NCBI GenBank assembly: GCA_947484175.1
Contig: CANKOI010000008.1
Location: 2,637-66,636 of the forward strand
From: Deltaproteobacteria bacterium
GTDB taxonomy: Bacteria; Myxococcota_A; UBA796; SXON01
Direction of reading: 5' to 3'
DNA length: 64,000 nucleotides
The notes below the pieces were generated by a model. The model did not search any database, was not told where the DNA came from, and was given only the letters and a program-made list of their open reading frames with translations. This document shows, in pieces, positions 29,507-41,238 of the stretch (the first letter of the stretch is position 1; every line of letters begins with the position of its first letter). Position numbers and translations under genes: made by a program.

Positions 29507-30877
<1,371 letters not shown>

Positions 30878-30880
30878 CGC

Positions 30881-31792
30881 TCAGGTCTTGCCGACGACCA
30901 CGCTGTAGCCAATCGTGCCGCTCCGGTCGGCGAGCGCCAGGAGCTGGTTGATGAGCGCGAAGCCCATGGCCTGAGCGAGGCCGCGGCGACCGATGTCGCT
31001 CCGGAACTCCTTGCTCTTGGCGCGGCAATACGGTGCCCAAACGCGGTCGCCGATCTCCTGCGTCGTGACGTTGAAGCCGAGATCGCGGAGCTGCGCGGCA
31101 AACTCCGGGGCGGTCAGGATGTTCTCGGAAGGCATTTTCCACGCCCGCGCGGCGAGTTGAACCAGCGGTAGCCACGCCCCCGGGGGTCGCCGCAGCGTCG
31201 CATCGCAGATTCCGAGCACGCCGCCTGGCCGGAGGATCGCCTTCGCCGAGCGGAAGAACTCCACCCGCCCCTTCATCTGCGAGGTCCCTTCGACGCAGAT
31301 CACGTGGGTGGCAAACTCCTTCCCGAACAGCTTGTCGATCTGGGTACCCGAGCCGAGGATCACCTCGATGTGCTCGGACAGCCCGTGCTTGGCGATGAGT
31401 CGATTCGACCGGACCACGTGCTGGGGCGTGAGGTCCACGCCCACGATCCTCTTGGGCCGGAACTTCTCGTAGAGATGAATCAGCTCCTTGCCCATTCCGG
31501 GGGCCACGTCGACCACCACCGATTCGCCGGGAACGAGGCTGAGGCCCCGGAACAGCTCGTCCCACATGTTGGCCGCTGCCTGCGCGTAGGTATCGGATGC
31601 GCTCCGCCACAGTCCGTAGGTCAGCTCCCAGTTGAGGTCGTCGTCCACGCGGTCGAGGCCCGTGCCGTAGAACGCGGCCACGCCGCGCTCGTGGGCGAGC
31701 CTCGTCTCGGTGTTCGAATCGCTCACGTTCAACCAGTCTTGGAATAACGCGTACTTGGAGGCAGAACACGCGAAGCGCGCCGAGGCCGACAC
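30881..31792 (-). CDS. Class I SAM-dependent methyltransferase (small-molecule type)
   Basis: The motif I region is VVDVAPGMGKE, and the protein is Rossmann-like throughout. The start is uncertain: GTG at 31792 or 31726. The ORF's annotated ATG at 32050 would overlap the divergent helicase gene. Confidence 0.75.
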   Translation of the reverse strand: MSASARFACSASKYALFQDWLNVSDSNTETRLAHERGVAAFYGTGLDRVDDDLNWELTYGLWRSASDTYAQAAANMWDELFRGLSLVPGESVVVDVAPGMGKELIHLYEKFRPKRIVGVDLTPQHVVRSNRLIAKHGLSEHIEVILGSGTQIDKLFGKEFATHVICVEGTSQMKGRVEFFRSAKAILRPGGVLGICDATLRRPPGAWLPLVQLAARAWKMPSENILTAPEFAAQLRDLGFNVTTQEIGDRVWAPYCRAKSKEFRSDIGRRGLAQAMGFALINQLLALADRSGTIGYSVVVGKT

Positions 31793-31921
31793 GGCGCCTG
31801 CCCGATCGCCGAGAGGAGCGGATCGCCGAGCTGTTGCTCGTGGTGGGCAACAGCGGGGGGCAGCCAAGCTGATCCCGAGTTCGACGTCGACCCCGCCGGC
31901 GCGGCCCGGTAGGTTCTCCGA

Positions 31922-34900
31922 ATGGGCTCCTTTCGCCGTCCCGAACTGACTGCCGGCGTCTACGACGAGCTCGTCACGCGACACTCCGCCGCCCTGCTCG
32001 CCGCGCTCGCCACGGAGCACGACGTCGTGCGAAAGGCGATCGGCGCGCAAGAAGACCTCGTCTCCCCGCTCACGAGCCTACTGAACGAGGCGATCGGTCT
32101 CGCCTTCGCTCAACTCCGGCGCGAACCGGAGAGGAGTCTGGCGCTCGCCGAGGCAGTCCTTCGCCTGCTCAGCGGCACCGACCACCTACTGGGCACTTCT
32201 GATGAACTCAGCCTGCTGCCCGAACGCATTCGAGCGATCGTCGCGCGTCCGGCCTCCCCGCCAGAGCTTCCTCTCGGGTCGCTCCACACATCGCGGCTCC
32301 TGGTGAACTCGGAAGGCGAATCCCTGCTCGATCACCTGCGCAGCGAGTTTGACTCGGCAGACAGTGTCGATCTCCTGTGCTCGTTCGTGAAGCTCAGCGG
32401 CGTAGAAAAGCTGCGTGTCGCTCTGGAGCGCCACAGCGAAACGCGCCGTCGCCCCCTACGCGTGCTGACGACCACCTACATGCGAGCAACCGACGCGCTC
32501 GCTGTCGAACGACTCGCCGCGCTGCCGGCCTGCGAAGTCAAGGTCTCCTACGACGCCTCGATGACCCGTCTCCACGCGAAAGCCTGGGTTTTTCATCGCA
32601 AGAGCGGGTACTCCACCGCGTTCGTCGGCTCCTCGAACCTCTCCCACGCCGCGCAGACCGATGGTCTGGAGTGGAACGTGCGCCTCACCGAGCAGGACCA
32701 ACCAGCCGTGTTGGCCCAGATGGTTGAGACCTTCAAGCAGTATTGGAACGACCTATACAAGTTTGAGCGGTTCGACGGCTCCACGGCGCACCGCACCCGG
32801 CTGCGCGCCGCGCTCGCGCCCGAGGAGTCCCAGACGGTGAACGCCTGGTTCGATCTGGAAGCCAAGGACTACCAACGACCCGTGCTCGCCGAGCTGTCTC
32901 GAGCTCGCGCTCTGGGTCGGCACCGCAACCTGCTCGTCGCCGCCACCGGGACCGGGAAGACGGTCATGGCCGCGCTTGACTACCGGGCGATGCGTGAAGC
33001 AGGGGAGATCGATTCGCTGCTGTTCGTCGCGCACCGGAAAGAGATTCTGGTGCAGGCGAGGCAGACTTTCCGCGCCGCTCTACGGTCCGCCACGTTTGGA
33101 GAGCTGTGGGTTGACGGGCTTCGGCCGACCGTCGGGCGACACGTCTTTGCGTCGATCGAGTCGCTCGGGGAAGCTGACGTCAGCGGGTTCGAAATGGTGA
33201 TCGTCGATGAGGCCCACCATTCGGCTGCCCGCACCTGGGACACCCTCCTCACCCGGCTCTCGCCCCGCGAGCTGCTCGGCCTGACCGGCACCCCAGAGCG
33301 GACGGATGGCTGGTCCTACTCCACTCACTTTCCCCCGCCGTGGGTCGGAAACCTGCGGGTGTGGAACGCGATCCCCGACGCGCTCGTGCCTTTCCGCTAC
33401 TACGTGATCGATGTGGACGAGGTGAGCCTGGCCGACGTGGCTTGGGTGTCCGGTCGCTACGCCCCTGAGGCGCTCGCCGGCAAGTTGGTAACGGCCGCGG
33501 ATGTGTTCGTGGAGAGGGCTGTCAAGGCCGTGCACGAGTACGTCGCCCGACCGGAGGGCATGCGCGCACTCGCCTTCTGCGCGAACATCGCCCACGCGAA
33601 GGCGGTGCACGCGTGCCTCACGGTGCGAGGACTGCGGGCGCAGGTGCTCACGGGCCAGACCGGCTCGGCCGAGCGCGAAGCGGCACAGGGCGCCCTGAAC
33701 GCCGGTAGCCTGCAGGTGCTTTGTGTCGTGGACCTCTACAACGAGGGCGTCGACGTCCCCAACGTCAACACCCTCCTCTTCTTCCGCCCCACAGAGAGCG
33801 CTACGGTCTTCCTCCAGCAACTCGGCCGAGGACTCCGGCGCGCGCGAGACAAGGCGGAACTGGTCGTGTTCGACCTCACCGGACGCCAGCGAGCCGAGTT
33901 TCGTTTCGACCAACGGCTTCGCGGCTTGCTGGGGCATACACCCCGCCAGCTTCGAGAGTTCGTCGACCAGGGCTTCGGCAGGCTCCCCGCCGGGTGCCAC
34001 GTGGTGTTCGGTGAGCGATCGCGTGCCGACATCCTCGCCCAGCTTCGAAGGTCAATCCCCGATAGTTTCAAGGGCCTGTGCGCCTTGCTCGCGGAACCAG
34101 TTCACGCTCACCTCTCGCTCGCTGGCTTCCTCGAAGAGACGGAGGTCTCGCTTGAGGACATCTACCGGTACCGCGAGTCGTGGCGTTCGCTCAGGTTGTC
34201 CGCCGGGCTCATTGTCTCGCCGATGCTCGCCGCTGGCGAGGAAGAGGCGCTGGCCAACGTCCACAAGCTTCTCCACGTGGGTGGCGAGCGGCTCGAGGCT
34301 TGGGGGCTGCTTCAGACCGGAGGGTGGCCCAGCGACGAGGCAGGTCAACGGTGCGCCCGCATGCTGTTCGCCGTCCTCTACGGCAAGGAGGTCGCTGCGG
34401 ATGACGATGCGTGTCGGGAACGAATCGCCGCCCACGCAGCGGTCCGCGCCGAGCTTGCGGAGCTGATTCCCGTGCTCCGCGCCCGAAACGCCACCCTCGC
34501 TGAAGGGACTAGGTTGTCCACCGACAACCCGCTATCGCTTCACGAGCGCTACCTCGGCGTCGAGGTCAGTGTCGCATTCAACCAGCGGACACCCACCGGC
34601 GCATTTCGTGAGTACTACACCGGCGTGGAGCGCGCGGGCGAAAAGGCCTACGACCTCCTGTTCGTCACGCTGGCGAAGTCGGCAGCCACGAAAGAACATC
34701 TCAAGTACCGGGACTTCCCGCTCCACGAGCAGCGATTCCACTGGCAGTCCAAGTCGCGGACGCGCCGGTCGACGGAAGACGGCCGCCGCCTTCTCGACCC
34801 CGCGGGCGAAGGCTGTACGGCCCTGCTCTTCGTGCGCGAGCGTGCCGACGAGCGCTCGCAGGTGACGATGGCGTTTCGTTATCTTGGCCCTGTCGACCCC

Positions 34901-34996
34901 GACGGCGACGACGGCGAGCGCCCCATCACCATCGAGTGGGCGCTGCGCCATCCGATGCCCGGCTCGCTGGCGCGGGAGGGAAGGGTGGCGGGGTGA
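31922..34996 (+). CDS. Single-chain PLD-family nuclease / SF2 DEAH helicase / DUF3427-like C-terminal domain protein
   Basis: 1024 aa. The HKD motif is RLHAKAWVFHRKSGYSTAFVGSSNLS. Helicase motifs are AATGTGKT, VDEAHH and LGLTGTPER. The C-terminal block FVTLAKS...YRDFPLHEQRFHWQSKS resembles DUF3427 as I recall it. Confidence 0.88.
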   Translation: MGSFRRPELTAGVYDELVTRHSAALLAALATEHDVVRKAIGAQEDLVSPLTSLLNEAIGLAFAQLRREPERSLALAEAVLRLLSGTDHLLGTSDELSLLPERIRAIVARPASPPELPLGSLHTSRLLVNSEGESLLDHLRSEFDSADSVDLLCSFVKLSGVEKLRVALERHSETRRRPLRVLTTTYMRATDALAVERLAALPACEVKVSYDASMTRLHAKAWVFHRKSGYSTAFVGSSNLSHAAQTDGLEWNVRLTEQDQPAVLAQMVETFKQYWNDLYKFERFDGSTAHRTRLRAALAPEESQTVNAWFDLEAKDYQRPVLAELSRARALGRHRNLLVAATGTGKTVMAALDYRAMREAGEIDSLLFVAHRKEILVQARQTFRAALRSATFGELWVDGLRPTVGRHVFASIESLGEADVSGFEMVIVDEAHHSAARTWDTLLTRLSPRELLGLTGTPERTDGWSYSTHFPPPWVGNLRVWNAIPDALVPFRYYVIDVDEVSLADVAWVSGRYAPEALAGKLVTAADVFVERAVKAVHEYVARPEGMRALAFCANIAHAKAVHACLTVRGLRAQVLTGQTGSAEREAAQGALNAGSLQVLCVVDLYNEGVDVPNVNTLLFFRPTESATVFLQQLGRGLRRARDKAELVVFDLTGRQRAEFRFDQRLRGLLGHTPRQLREFVDQGFGRLPAGCHVVFGERSRADILAQLRRSIPDSFKGLCALLAEPVHAHLSLAGFLEETEVSLEDIYRYRESWRSLRLSAGLIVSPMLAAGEEEALANVHKLLHVGGERLEAWGLLQTGGWPSDEAGQRCARMLFAVLYGKEVAADDDACRERIAAHAAVRAELAELIPVLRARNATLAEGTRLSTDNPLSLHERYLGVEVSVAFNQRTPTGAFREYYTGVERAGEKAYDLLFVTLAKSAATKEHLKYRDFPLHEQRFHWQSKSRTRRSTEDGRRLLDPAGEGCTALLFVRERADERSQVTMAFRYLGPVDPDGDDGERPITIEWALRHPMPGSLAREGRVAG

Positions 34997-35097
34997 GGGG
35001 CAGCGCAGAGCGACCGAAGTCGATGGGTGAGCCGCCACCCTGCGACTTCGGTCGCACCGCAACGCTCCGTGCTATTCTGCGCGGCCGAGGGGTTCCG

Positions 35098-36432
35098 ATG
35101 CCACTTCTGCTTCAGCTCGCGGCGTGCGGAAACGACGTCTCCGTCAGCAGCTACAACGAGCCGCCTACCGCGAGCATCCAGTCGCCGCCCAACGGCACCA
35201 CGCGCAAAGAAGGCGAGATCATCGACTTCATCGGCACCGCCAACGACGACCAGACGCCCAGCAACCTGCTGTTCATCCAGTGGTCGAGCGACATCGACAG
35301 CGTGCTCACCAACGAGAAGGCCTGCGCGGTGAGCGGCTCCTGCACCTACTCCACCGCCCAGCTCACGCCGGGAAACCACACCATCACGCTGAGCGCGGGC
35401 GACGAACAGGGCGAAACCGCGGAGTCGCACATCACCGTCGTGATCGAGGAGGTGCCCGACGCGCCCACCATCCAGATGGTTCACCCGGCCGCGGGCGAAA
35501 CGACCGATGAAGGCGACGACTTCACGTTCATGGTGCAGGTCTCCGACGAGCAAGACACGCCCGACCTCCTCTACCTGAGCTTCAACTACGAGGGCGATGC
35601 CGGGCTCACGGAGTTCTGCGCCCCGAAAGCCGATGCCACCGGCATCGCCGCCTGCGAGGCGGAGATTCCTGGAGGCACGCAGCACTTGCTGTTCACCGTC
35701 ATCGATCAGGACGGCTTGAGCGACACCGCCGAGGCCTTCTTCGTGGTGCGCCCCCTCACGCAGATCGACAACGACGGCGACGGGTTCACCGAAGAGATGG
35801 GCGACTGCGACGACGACGACAACCTCAGCTACCCCGGCGGCACCGAGATCGAAGACGGCAGCGACAACGACTGCGACGAGATCGTCGACGAAGGCACCCG
35901 CGGCTACGACGACGACGGCGACGGCTATTCCGAGAACGACGGCGACTGCGACGACACCACCCTCGCGCTGGGCCCCGAAGCCGCGGAGAGCTGCAACGGC
36001 CTTGACGACAACTGCGACGGCACCGCCGACACCGAGGGCGCCACCGGCTGCTCCAACTACTACTACGACTACGACGGCGACGGGTACGGCAGCTCCTCTG
36101 TGTCCGCGAAGTGCCTCTGCACCGACAGCGGCTACTACCGCAGCGGCTACGACAACGACTGCTACGACTACAACGTGTCCGCGAGCCCGGCCGCCACCTC
36201 GTACAGCACCGCCCAGCGCGGCGACGGCAGCTGGGACTGGAACTGCGACGGCAACGAAACGAAGTACTACCCCTCCGTGGGCACCTGCTCGGGCGCGCTG
36301 TGGGTCTGCTCCTGGGCGAGCGGGTGGAGCGGAACGGTGCGCGCCTGCGGGAGCAGCGGGGACTGGATCGACGGGTGCGACGGAATTCTGTGTGATTCGA
36401 GCACCACCCCCGTCACGCAGCCCTGCATCTAG
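35098..36432 (+). CDS. Cys/Asp-rich lipoprotein with Ig-like domains and MopE-like metal-binding-type repeats
   Basis: Lipobox MPLLLQLAAC (an alternative ATG lies at 35023). Repeats: DNDGDGFTEEMGDCDDDD, DDDGDGYSENDGDCDD, CNGLDDNCDG, YDYDGDGYG. The C-terminal tail is Cys-rich. Confidence 0.8.
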   Translation: MPLLLQLAACGNDVSVSSYNEPPTASIQSPPNGTTRKEGEIIDFIGTANDDQTPSNLLFIQWSSDIDSVLTNEKACAVSGSCTYSTAQLTPGNHTITLSAGDEQGETAESHITVVIEEVPDAPTIQMVHPAAGETTDEGDDFTFMVQVSDEQDTPDLLYLSFNYEGDAGLTEFCAPKADATGIAACEAEIPGGTQHLLFTVIDQDGLSDTAEAFFVVRPLTQIDNDGDGFTEEMGDCDDDDNLSYPGGTEIEDGSDNDCDEIVDEGTRGYDDDGDGYSENDGDCDDTTLALGPEAAESCNGLDDNCDGTADTEGATGCSNYYYDYDGDGYGSSSVSAKCLCTDSGYYRSGYDNDCYDYNVSASPAATSYSTAQRGDGSWDWNCDGNETKYYPSVGTCSGALWVCSWASGWSGTVRACGSSGDWIDGCDGILCDSSTTPVTQPCI

Positions 36433-37848: not shown

Positions 37849-39300
37849 ATGGACATCACTCTCCTCAACCCTCCCGAGCAGCTCCGCGTGTGGGCCGGCA
37901 TTCCCAAGGCCATGGCCTACGGGGTGTACTGCTTTCCGCCGCTCGGCCTGATGTACGTTCAGGCGGCGATCGAAAAACGCTCCCACTACAAGGCGGAGAT
38001 CTTTGATCCGGTCGTCGACGATCTCGACTACCCCGAGTTCGAAGCGCAGCTCAAGCGCTACCCGCTCGACATCGTGGGCATCAGCACCTACACGCACTCG
38101 CTGCCCGACGTGCAGATGACCATCAACACGGTGCGCAAGCTCAACCCGAACGCGAAGATCGTGCTCGGCGGCCCACACACCTCGATGTTTCCCGACTACG
38201 CGATGCAGCTCAAGGATGCCGACGCCATCCTCACGGGCGATGGCGAAGACGCGTTTCTCGAGATGGTACAGCGCTACGACGCCGGCAAGTCCTGGGAGGG
38301 CATCGAGGGCCTCTGGTTCAAGGACAACGACGGCACGGTCATCAAGAACAAGGATCGGAAGAGCACCAAGTCGCTCGACTCCTACCCTTGGCCCGACCGC
38401 AGCCGCACCCGCTTCCGCGAGTACTACCTGCCCGGCTGCAAACAGCCGCTCAACACCACGGCCATCACCAGCCGCGGCTGTCCGCACTCCTGCCCCTTCT
38501 GCCTCACCTACAAGAAGCAGTACCGGATGCGCGACATCGACAACATCCTCGACGAGATGGAGCACTGCGTTTCCCTCGGCATCACCGAGACCCACTTCAT
38601 CGACGACCTGTTCACGCCGAACAGCCAGTGGGCGATGAAGTTCTGCGACGGCATCGAGCGGCGCGGGCTGAAGTTCAACTGGGGCTACAAGACCACGATC
38701 GCCGGTACCACCCGCGAGCAGCTCCGTCGCTGCGCCGAAACGGGCTGCACGAAGATTCACTTCGGCGTGGAGAGCACGAACAACGAAGGCCTCGACGTGT
38801 GGGGCAAACACTGCGACACCGACGACGTGCACCGCGTATTCAAGTGGTGCCGCGAAGAGGGCGTGCGCAGCGTGGCCTACATCATGCTCGGCGGGCCCCA
38901 CGAGCGCACGATGGATGCCGCGATCAAGAACGTCGACGAGATGATCAAGCTCGACGCCGACTACGCGGTGTTCGCGGTCTTCTCGCCCTACCCGGGCACC
39001 GAGAGCTTCGAAGACGGCGCCAAGAAGGGTCTTTTCGCGGCCGACTGCTGGGACCGCCTGATGAAAGACCCGCTCTGCGGCGTGGAAGTACCCGCCTGCT
39101 GGGAGGAGCACCTCACCAAGGAGCAAATCCTTGAGCTCCTGAAGATCGCGCACCGCAAGTTCTACTTGCGGCCTCGTTTCGTGGCGCGCACGGCGGCGAA
39201 GATCGCCAGCGTTTCGGAGGCCAAACGCCTCTTTGCCGGCGGGCTCTCGATCTTCAAGCTGGAATTGCTCAACGGCAAGAGCCGCACCGCACCGGTGTAG
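37849..39300 (+). CDS. B12-binding-domain radical SAM protein (class B rSAM)
   Basis: 483 aa, with a GGAG Shine-Dalgarno 5 nt upstream. It has an N-terminal cobalamin-binding-like domain (DIVGISTYTHS...IVLGGPH). The radical-SAM cluster motif is SRGCPHSCPFC. Confidence 0.9.
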   Translation: MDITLLNPPEQLRVWAGIPKAMAYGVYCFPPLGLMYVQAAIEKRSHYKAEIFDPVVDDLDYPEFEAQLKRYPLDIVGISTYTHSLPDVQMTINTVRKLNPNAKIVLGGPHTSMFPDYAMQLKDADAILTGDGEDAFLEMVQRYDAGKSWEGIEGLWFKDNDGTVIKNKDRKSTKSLDSYPWPDRSRTRFREYYLPGCKQPLNTTAITSRGCPHSCPFCLTYKKQYRMRDIDNILDEMEHCVSLGITETHFIDDLFTPNSQWAMKFCDGIERRGLKFNWGYKTTIAGTTREQLRRCAETGCTKIHFGVESTNNEGLDVWGKHCDTDDVHRVFKWCREEGVRSVAYIMLGGPHERTMDAAIKNVDEMIKLDADYAVFAVFSPYPGTESFEDGAKKGLFAADCWDRLMKDPLCGVEVPACWEEHLTKEQILELLKIAHRKFYLRPRFVARTAAKIASVSEAKRLFAGGLSIFKLELLNGKSRTAPV

Positions 39301-40698: not shown

Positions 40699-41238
40699 TC
40701 ATCCTGGCGCCTCAGCACGGGAAACGAGGCCCCGGCGCACGGCCTGCTCGGTTGCTTGTTGGAGGACGTCGGGCGGGAGAGGCGCCGCTGCACAGTCGCG
40801 GAGCGTACGCGCCACGCTCGTGACAGGGACGTTGCCCACCCAGGTGCGATCCTCAGCCGCGAGGTCGGCGTGGTGCAGAACGACGCCATCCGGGACGCGG
40901 AGCCGACGCGCGCGCCACGGCATGGGCAGCGTGAGGTCGGCGAGGTTGGGAAGGATGTCGGAGAGGTCATGCAGCGCAAGCGCAGTCGCGCAGCTGAACA
41001 CGCCTGCTCGTGCAGACCAGAGCCACACCACGACGAGGTCTTCGTCGTCCTGCGAAGGGAGGTGGCGGACACGGTAGATGCCGCGCCTCACGCGGACGAG
41101 CCTGGCTGCGTGCGTGTGGTGGATCAGAAGCTCGGGCGAAAAGCCGAGCGAGCCCGCCTGGGCGGTGGTGAAGTAGCCGGACTGGGAGACCGCAAGGTCG
41201 AGCAGCGACGGCCAGTCGGGAAACGAGGGCGGTGGCAT
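40699..41238 (-). CDS. AbiEi-family (type IV TA) antitoxin-like wHTH protein, no cognate AbiEii toxin adjacent
   Basis: 179 aa. The N-terminal AbiEi-type wHTH is GYFTTAQAGSLGFSPELLIHHTHAARLVRVRRGIYRV. No nucleotidyltransferase ORF lies downstream. Confidence 0.75.
   Translation of the reverse strand: MPPPSFPDWPSLLDLAVSQSGYFTTAQAGSLGFSPELLIHHTHAARLVRVRRGIYRVRHLPSQDDEDLVVVWLWSARAGVFSCATALALHDLSDILPNLADLTLPMPWRARRLRVPDGVVLHHADLAAEDRTWVGNVPVTSVARTLRDCAAAPLPPDVLQQATEQAVRRGLVSRAEAPG

Follow-up and report, generated by a model that had tools for sequence, protein, structure and literature searches.

A single-chain PLD nuclease–ATPase–DUF3427 protein of an uncultured Deltaproteobacteria bacterium is most likely a Type IV restriction enzyme of the SauUSI family

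The Staphylococcus aureus enzyme SauUSI, whose crystal structure is available as 7CLG, combines on one chain a PLD nuclease domain, a DExH SF2 ATPase, a helical coupler (residues 618-805) and a target-recognition domain (TRD) of the DUF3427 type with an SRA-like fold, and it is a homodimer held together by its PLD domains, which form one active site (PMC7913695). The DUF3427 region has been proposed to flip 5-methylcytosine (5mC) into a pocket lined by Y831, F841, I842 and W868, with D858 hydrogen-bonding the base and M829 taking up the space that is vacated in the duplex (PMC7913695). Cleavage is abolished by alanine substitution of H119, K121, N139 or E150, and SauUSI has no DNA methyltransferase encoded next to it, a Type IV enzyme needing no such partner (PMC3141236). 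The Type II systems CglI and NgoAVII are two-protein systems (R and H) that rely on a B3-like domain to read an unmodified sequence and are accompanied by a methyltransferase (PMC7913695; bioRxiv 10.1101/2025.10.16.682607). Here, we analyze a gene located at positions 31922..34996 on the plus strand of a 64-kb stretch of contig CANKOI010000008.1 from a Deltaproteobacteria bacterium; this whole stretch is referred to as the window, and all coordinates are given in its numbering. The gene encodes the same four modules as SauUSI in the same order on one chain, and we consider it very probable that its product belongs to the SauUSI family as a single-chain, modification-dependent Type IV restriction endonuclease, most likely directed against 5mC or 5-hydroxymethylcytosine (5hmC).

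The open reading frame (ORF) is intact, with 1024 codons from an ATG start and coding-type GC contents at the three codon positions (GC1/GC2/GC3 = 0.715/0.475/0.806). Four public metagenome contigs carry a 100% identical protein, for which the gene callers pick the same start and stop, and the ATG is further supported by an orthologue of 89% identity (85% at the nucleotide level), as the nucleotide similarity begins 21 nt upstream of it (31901) and ends exactly at the stop codon. The protein of 1024 residues matches the PADLOC model PDLC03659 (mREase_IV, "Type IV methyl-directed restriction enzyme") with E = 2.8e-175, residues 117-1014 covering profile positions 17-933 of 945 (917 positions) and thereby almost the full length of the model; a second model, PDLC03658, is matched with E = 5.6e-52. 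PADLOC-DB already lists this subfamily among its defence genes, under PDLC03659, and it should be noted that this entry, despite the near end-to-end likeness, is itself predicted, as opposed to an enzyme that has been characterised.

The match to a characterised enzyme comes from the PDB. A search of PDB sequences with the single sequence returned 7CLG as the best match (E = 1.2e-54), and a profile built from 53 homologues of 51-89% identity, the set used for all conservation counts given here, matched it with E = 1.1e-101. This alignment is collinear over SauUSI residues 28-684, taking in the PLD domain, the ATPase and the first coupler subdomain, and a second stretch covers SauUSI residues 840-914 within the TRD. 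A Foldseek search of the PDB with the full-length AlphaFold2 model (mean predicted local distance difference test score, pLDDT, of 80.6) likewise gave 7CLG as the best match (E = 3.6e-38, 936 columns), 22 orders of magnitude better than the runner-up, RadD (E = 7e-16). SauUSI is the best match in both sequence and structure, for the whole protein as well as for the TRD alone. With E-values between 1e-6 and 1e-28 for the Pfam domain matches, and that of the PADLOC match, the layout lies far beyond chance. A preliminary description of this DNA, made from its sequence alone, had read the gene as a PLD nuclease joined to a DEAH SF2 helicase and DUF3427, and as a candidate stand-alone DNA-targeting defence enzyme; the Pfam matches bear out the layout, with the motifs it quoted present, and the proposed role agrees with the matches to 7CLG and to mREase_IV, the PADLOC search that it had suggested returning a full-length match. 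The protein search yielded at least 8000 relatives. Nearest among the named ones is GDX81865.1, "helicase [Deltaproteobacteria bacterium]", and the homologue names include Myxococcales, Anaeromyxobacter and Kofleriaceae; a contig search by exact peptide patterns gave 6 loci, a number that says little on taxonomic spread.

The PLD (HKD) nuclease domain comprises residues ~133-300 (32318..32821, plus strand, as for all parts of the gene described below), as delimited by Pfam and the alignment to SauUSI. Pfam recognizes PLDc_2 at residues 179-275 with 27.2 bits, barely above the cut-off of 27, and RE_NgoFVII PLD at residues 205-269 with 24.9 bits. Within this domain, H218 and K220 (in HAKAWVF), N239 (in GSSNLS) and E250 align to the SauUSI residues H119, K121, N139 and E150, and none of the four varies among the 53 homologues, which settles the question, raised in the preliminary description, of whether the catalytic His and Lys of the HKD motif might be degenerate across orthologues. 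The following SF2 DExH helicase-like ATPase (residues ~301-670, 32822..33931) is supported by Pfam, by its motifs and by the alignment to SauUSI. It contains ResIII at residues 312-460 (98.7 bits) and Helicase_C at residues 535-639 (50.2 bits), and shows motif I as G343-T-G-K346-T347, motif II as D429-E430-A431-H432 (DEAH), motif III as T455-G-T457 and motif VI as Q632-Q-x-x-R636-G-L-R639; G343, K346, T347, D429, E430, H432, T455, T457, Q632, R636, G637 and R639 are conserved without exception (53/53). The ATPase is joined to the reader domain by a coupler (residues ~671-860, 33932..34501), for which the model is all-helical over residues 662-855 with pLDDT mostly 85-95, and into which the profile alignment runs as far as SauUSI residue 684, through the first coupler subdomain (SauUSI 618-684).

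The C-terminal TRD (residues ~861-1024, 34502..34993) is matched by Pfam DUF3427 at residues 837-1016 (72.5 bits, E = 4.6e-20), and a TRD profile searched against PDB sequences found 7CLG as its sole significant match (E = 6.9e-5). A separate model of residues 800-1024 (pLDDT 84.2, predicted template modelling score 0.82) again placed the SauUSI TRD first in Foldseek (E = 2.4e-5, TMq 0.53), followed by MspJI, SUVH6, KRYPTONITE, AbaSI, TagI, ScoMcrA-SRA and UHRF1-SRA, which are all modified-cytosine readers and of which the SUVH6 and KRYPTONITE structures contain methylated DNA. The predicted structure therefore supports an SRA-like fold of the C-terminal domain, in line with the modified-base reader fold for which the preliminary description had proposed to search. 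Alignment to the SauUSI TRD indicates R896, Y898, F914, V915, D931 and W941 as candidate pocket residues. The cytosine-contacting Asp and Trp appear to be kept, with D858 and W868 of SauUSI corresponding to D931 and W941, both of which are invariant (53/53); I842 corresponds to V915 (Val in 51 of 53), and F841 to position 914, where 47 of the 53 homologues have Leu and 5 have Phe.

The two remaining pocket positions are less readily placed. Neither the single-sequence nor the profile HMMER alignment reached the strand carrying M829 and Y831 of SauUSI, and the SauUSI TRD sequence was recovered through a Bacilli homologue, L004 (7CLG E = 2e-106), with a residue count that reproduces the published numbering. 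A MAFFT alignment to this sequence puts M829 at R896, which is invariant, and Y831 at Y898, where 52 of 53 homologues have either Tyr or Phe; anchoring on a conserved Gly instead puts them at T900 and V902, with the hairpin being 8 residues longer than that of SauUSI. A SauUSI-like specificity for 5mC is uncertain because the equivalents of M829 and Y831 cannot be assigned with confidence, and 5mC or 5hmC is the base most likely to be read by this domain.

Ahead of the nuclease domain, the protein carries a module of 116 residues (31922..32269), followed by a linker at residues 117-132 (32270..32317) that falls below a pLDDT of 50 in the full-length model and is probably flexible. The module is gap-free in 53 of 53 homologues at ~35% identity, with R5-R6, L9, G12 and Y14-D15-E16 conserved, and is modelled with three to four helices (20-29, 47-64, 69-84 and 93-96; pLDDT 66-90). 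It lies outside the PDLC03659 profile, and a Pfam search of residues 1-116 returned no family. A module profile searched against 1.84 billion representative proteins gave 129 matches at E <= 1e-3, nearly all of them beginning at residue 1 and being either short fragments or proteins of the same PLD–helicase–DUF3427 architecture. One protein of 907 residues (P0182, E = 5.9e-6) is an exception, with the module preceding a NERD nuclease and a UvrD-like helicase as recognized by Pfam, a hint that defence-type nuclease–helicases may share the module as a portable unit.

To place the gene in its genomic context, we compared the window with the loci of homologues. The orthologue of 89% identity shares only 31901..34996 with the 64-kb window in blastn and tblastx comparisons and is flanked by unrelated genes, and the homologues of 76, 61, 60 and 59% identity are each found in a different gene setting, one adjoining ParAB, peptidase M78, CoiA and WYL-domain genes and another UDG, Dfp and ClpB; the homologue of 60% identity belongs to Anaeromyxobacter terrae. 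A housekeeping gene in a syntenic core context, which the preliminary description had named as the observation that would speak against a defence role, is thus not what the orthologues show, their six contexts from 89 down to 59% identity being all different. The gene meets the expectation of an accessory, horizontally moving gene, as had been suggested; the argument from sequence comparison lies in the flanks not being shared among homologues, composition being too weak to count. The slightly lower GC that had been noticed by eye was confirmed (GC3 of 0.806; mean over the window 0.855, sd 0.041), yet with z = -1.2 and a rank of sixth lowest among 37 genes it was rejected as evidence of transfer. 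No meaningful direct or inverted repeats marking a mobile cassette were found at the flanks, and a 16-nt repeat pair (31886 and 34892) was set aside as being close to chance in GC-rich DNA, where we estimate that ~0.5 would be expected.

The homologous loci offer two further observations. The 61% homologue (L012 1..9768, on a 504-kb contig from the JGI) has as neighbours a tyrosine integrase with an Arm-DNA-binding domain, an excisionase-like HTH_17 protein, Fic, HNH_2, HicB, a second PLDc_2 protein and an unannotated protein of 1049 residues, and borders on what appears to be an integrated element or a defence island. Upstream of the 76% homologue (L011 4233..7018), at a distance of ~3-6 kb, lie a gene with an Eco57I-type (Type IIG-like) methyltransferase domain and a class-I methyltransferase gene.

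In the window, no called gene within ~10 kb of the restriction gene has a DNA-methylase domain, which fits the Type IV assignment. A methyltransferase gene transcribed divergently from the restriction gene is indeed present upstream, as the preliminary description had stated (30881..31792, minus strand, 303 residues as called), but a relevance to DNA modification did not hold up. Its product matches generic class-I S-adenosylmethionine (SAM) families (Methyltransf_25, Methyltransf_11 and CMAS-like), has weak NCBIfam matches to small-molecule, protein and tRNA methyltransferases, and finds in the defence library a sole match, to PADLOC mad2 (E = 8.7e-14), which is partial and confined to the Rossmann core. 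As the gene is moreover absent beside all homologues examined, we rejected a functional link between the two. A mechanically called ORF of 389 residues with a TTG start (30881..32050, minus strand), which reaches 129 nt into the start of the restriction gene, is an over-extension of the same gene. Between the two genes, gene calls on the identical public contigs leave a divergent intergenic region of 129 bp (31793..31921), which is presumed to be the promoter region.

Compared with other known systems, the protein shares single parts with several of them. Apart from mREase_IV, all PADLOC and NCBIfam matches, among them PbeA, Type I R subunits, DpdF, DrmA/DrmC, RadD and XPB, extend over no more than the helicase lobes or the PLD core, with scores far under the curated cut-offs. 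The predicted reader fold resembles those of MspJI, AbaSI, TagI and ScoMcrA and of the eukaryotic SRA proteins (UHRF1, SUVH5/6 and KRYPTONITE), all being base-flipping modified-cytosine readers, but this likeness is structural only (8-14% identity), and the reader is the only common part with MspJI, AbaSI, TagI and ScoMcrA, which have PD-(D/E)XK, HNH or Vsr-like nucleases and no ATPase motor. CglI and NgoAVII have parts of the same kind as our protein, namely a dimeric PLD nuclease and SF2 translocase ATPases; in contrast to these, it is a single chain with an SRA-like reader and no DNA methyltransferase nearby, and its NgoFVII-related match concerns the PLD core only. The closest non-restriction relative of the SF2 helicase core is RadD (Escherichia coli YejH), which has neither the PLD nuclease nor the DUF3427 reader.

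The preliminary description had compared the protein with DISARM, Mokosh and BfiI-type enzymes, which was right in pointing to a restriction-like enzyme; these are, however, much more distant from it than SauUSI, which was not named. DISARM was rejected, with DrmC (E = 0.0045) and DrmA (E = 3.6e-4) matching partially and no partner genes nearby; in NCBIfam, DrmC reaches 18.4 bits against a cut-off of 133 and the "phospholipD_antiphage" family 26.8 bits against 1100. No Mokosh model was found among the 25 best PADLOC matches listed. Type I and Type III systems were rejected as well, the NCBIfam scores being 56 bits against 550 for an EcoAI-type R subunit and 12 bits against 285 for TIGR00348 hsdR; no Mod or HsdM/S genes lie nearby.

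Several observations weigh against an assignment to the SauUSI family or against the specificity proposed with it. The identity to SauUSI is only 20% in the structural alignment and 17% in the TRD, and the full-length comparison with 7CLG gives low template modelling scores (0.32 and 0.38) and a root-mean-square deviation of ~22 A, which we attribute to inter-domain orientations that may differ in the model of a multidomain protein. The N-terminal module of ~115 residues is without a counterpart in SauUSI, as is the flexible linker. In the SauUSI motif H-x-K-x4-E, the acidic residue E126, part of the conserved PLD motif and not among the residues mutagenised, is replaced here by His225, a position at which 49 of the 53 homologues have His, 3 have Tyr and 1 has Ala. 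The equivalents of the intercalating M829 and of Y831, which contacts the methyl group, depend on the alignment, and the hairpin differs in length. Some other DUF3427 fusions, furthermore, had little nuclease activity in vitro (Lutz et al., PMC6765204). His225 is treated here as a clade-level variation, not as a defining failure of SauUSI membership, because the four essential residues are intact and the family hidden Markov model matches end to end, and the N-terminal module, His225 and the longer TRD hairpin are all variations within the family and do not make a new kind of system. The hosts, too, are different, with SauUSI coming from the Bacillota and the gene described here from a high-GC Myxococcota-type organism.

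The pocket leaves room for a reader within the same family and mechanism that recognizes another modification or context, such as other cytosine adducts, hypermodified bases or N4-methylcytosine, with the N-terminal module being regulatory. We hold this to be a tentative possibility with a minor share of the likelihood: besides the low TRD identity, the residues standing in for M829 and Y831 may be an invariant Arg together with a Tyr/Phe, or else Thr together with Val, and the pocket varies within the SauUSI family, as the Bacilli homologue L004 carries Gln and Thr at these two positions; related SRA/PUA-like readers also cover 5mC, 5hmC and other marks (PMC6765204). The invariance of D931 and W941 speaks for the SauUSI-like specificity instead, as do the nearest structural neighbours, all of which read 5mC or 5hmC. 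Somewhat less probable still, and in our view rather unlikely, is that the clade, set apart by the conserved module of ~115 residues and the remodelled reader hairpin with its invariant R896, forms a functionally distinct SauUSI branch that might read a mark other than 5mC and 5hmC, or that the module, seen also in P0182 ahead of the NERD nuclease and UvrD-like helicase, is a portable regulatory or sensor domain common to defence proteins of the nuclease–helicase kind. That the gene acts in a system of several genes with distant partners, of the kind represented by CglI/NgoAVII, DISARM, Dpd, BREX helicases, PbeA or Type I/III enzymes, appears highly improbable. Family variants with the specificity domain as a separate protein do exist (Lutz et al., PMC6765204), and partial matches were obtained to PbeA (E = 7e-28), REase_I, DpdF, BrxH, DrmA, DrmC and "PLD_Helicase", next to the Pfam RE_NgoFVII PLD match; these fall short of mREase_IV by more than 100 orders of magnitude and cover the helicase C-lobe or the PLD core only, whereas nuclease, motor and reader are all present on one chain, PADLOC finds no partner genes among ten neighbouring proteins save an unrelated AbiEi, and the neighbours differ in every homologue examined.

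A housekeeping helicase–nuclease for repair or recombination, similar to RadD or XPB, is even less likely. The low RadD E-values (1.3e-24 in NCBIfam and 1.3e-20 in the PDB, along with the Foldseek match), the presence of chromosomal genes, for example GlnN and HisRS, around the gene, and the homologue beside UDG, Dfp and ClpB would be in keeping with it; RadD, however, scores 86.4 bits against an NCBIfam cut-off of 720, over the helicase lobes only, and lacks the PLD nuclease and the SRA-like reader, while over its full length the protein matches a restriction enzyme, and synteny is absent among the homologues, with the 89% orthologue sharing the gene alone. We give the lowest probability of all to a decayed or inactive relic. 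Such a reading could build on the borderline PLDc_2 score and on the His in place of the acidic residue at K+5 of the PLD motif, but the reading frame of 1024 codons is intact with coding-type GC1/GC2/GC3 values, the catalytic and motor residues are invariant in the 53 homologues down to 51% identity, and the protein is found 100% identical on five independent metagenome contigs. A Type IV enzyme of the SauUSI family is the reading that we prefer.

For an enzyme of this family, a mechanism can be proposed with steps drawn from SauUSI (PMC7913695; bioRxiv 10.1101/2025.10.16.682607). The C-terminal SRA-like domain would bind incoming DNA and flip a cytosine that is modified, most probably to 5mC or 5hmC, into its pocket, where D931 would hydrogen-bond the base and W941, F914, V915 and the aromatic residue at position 898 would line the cavity. 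Recognition would be relayed by the helical coupler and so activate the DExH ATPase, and the motor would then translocate on double-stranded DNA, either unidirectionally or with loop formation, presumably at the expense of ATP. In a putative homodimer, the PLD domains would form one active site from H218, K220, N239 and E250, and this single site would cut both strands at variable distances, with repeated cycles shredding the foreign DNA. The host would be spared as its own DNA would be without the modification, and no partner methyltransferase would be needed.

The gene is flanked by genes for lipoproteins, as had been noted previously, with lipoprotein-like signal or lipobox starts (LSAC, LAAC and MTAC) in the proteins of 333, 444 and 254 residues. 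Glutamine synthetase III (GlnN), a GT87 glycosyltransferase, an FHA–sigma54 activator, further lipoproteins, a PEMT-like enzyme, a B12 radical-SAM protein and HisRS make up the wider neighbourhood, which looks chromosomal. The genes at 29507..30877 (plus strand) and 35098..36432 (plus strand) encode the FHA sigma-54 activator and a lipoprotein with MopE-type Cys-rich metal-binding repeats and Big_7; the flanking gene content is consistent with what is typical of Myxococcota and agrees with the homologue names. The B12-binding radical-SAM protein of 483 residues (37849..39300, plus strand) matches PADLOC PDC-M51A with E = 1.3e-10, which is probably a generic radical-SAM similarity. At 40699..41238 (minus strand), 5.7 kb downstream of the restriction gene, lies an AbiEi-family gene encoding 179 residues (PADLOC PDLC02228, E = 5e-64; Pfam AbiEi_4), whose GC3 of 0.80 is low, as is that of the restriction gene. 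An AbiEii nucleotidyltransferase partner is not evident, since downstream of AbiEi on the minus strand there is a gap of ~300 nt and then the plus-strand gene of a 364-residue protein, which follows the radical-SAM gene and has no family match; the AbiEi gene may be an orphan antitoxin or regulator.

Downstream of the restriction gene, 9 nt past its stop codon, an inverted repeat folds into a GC-rich stem-loop (35005..35060, plus strand) with 25-nt arms and a predicted RNA folding energy of -49.8 kcal/mol (z = -4.3; 0 of 200 shuffles equally stable). It occurs once in the window, has no T-tract and was not found at the orthologue loci, and it is possibly a terminator or 3'-end stabiliser. A scan of 31793..31921 for the sigma-70 consensus found none, which is uninformative in a genome of 68% GC, and the same applies to a scan for intrinsic terminators, which found none and is uninformative for a high-GC organism.

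The combination of PLD nuclease, ATPase and DUF3427 is not new, the SauUSI family having already been characterised biochemically and structurally, and the protein is an ordinary member of this known family in an uncultured high-GC lineage, which the names of the homologues and of GDX81865.1 suggest to be probably Myxococcota. What the comparison provides is a better name: in Myxococcota-type genomes, proteins annotated as just "helicase" or "DUF3427 domain-containing protein" can be renamed SauUSI-family Type IV restriction enzymes. If the assignment is true, the enzyme would be a barrier to Dcm- or CpG-methylated plasmids in bacteria that are hard to transform, as SauUSI is in staphylococci (PMC3312211), and DNA for transformation would best be prepared from a dcm-negative host, because the enzyme would bar methylated plasmid DNA. 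The N-terminal module and the diverged pocket offer modest leads on how specificities or regulation may vary within the family.

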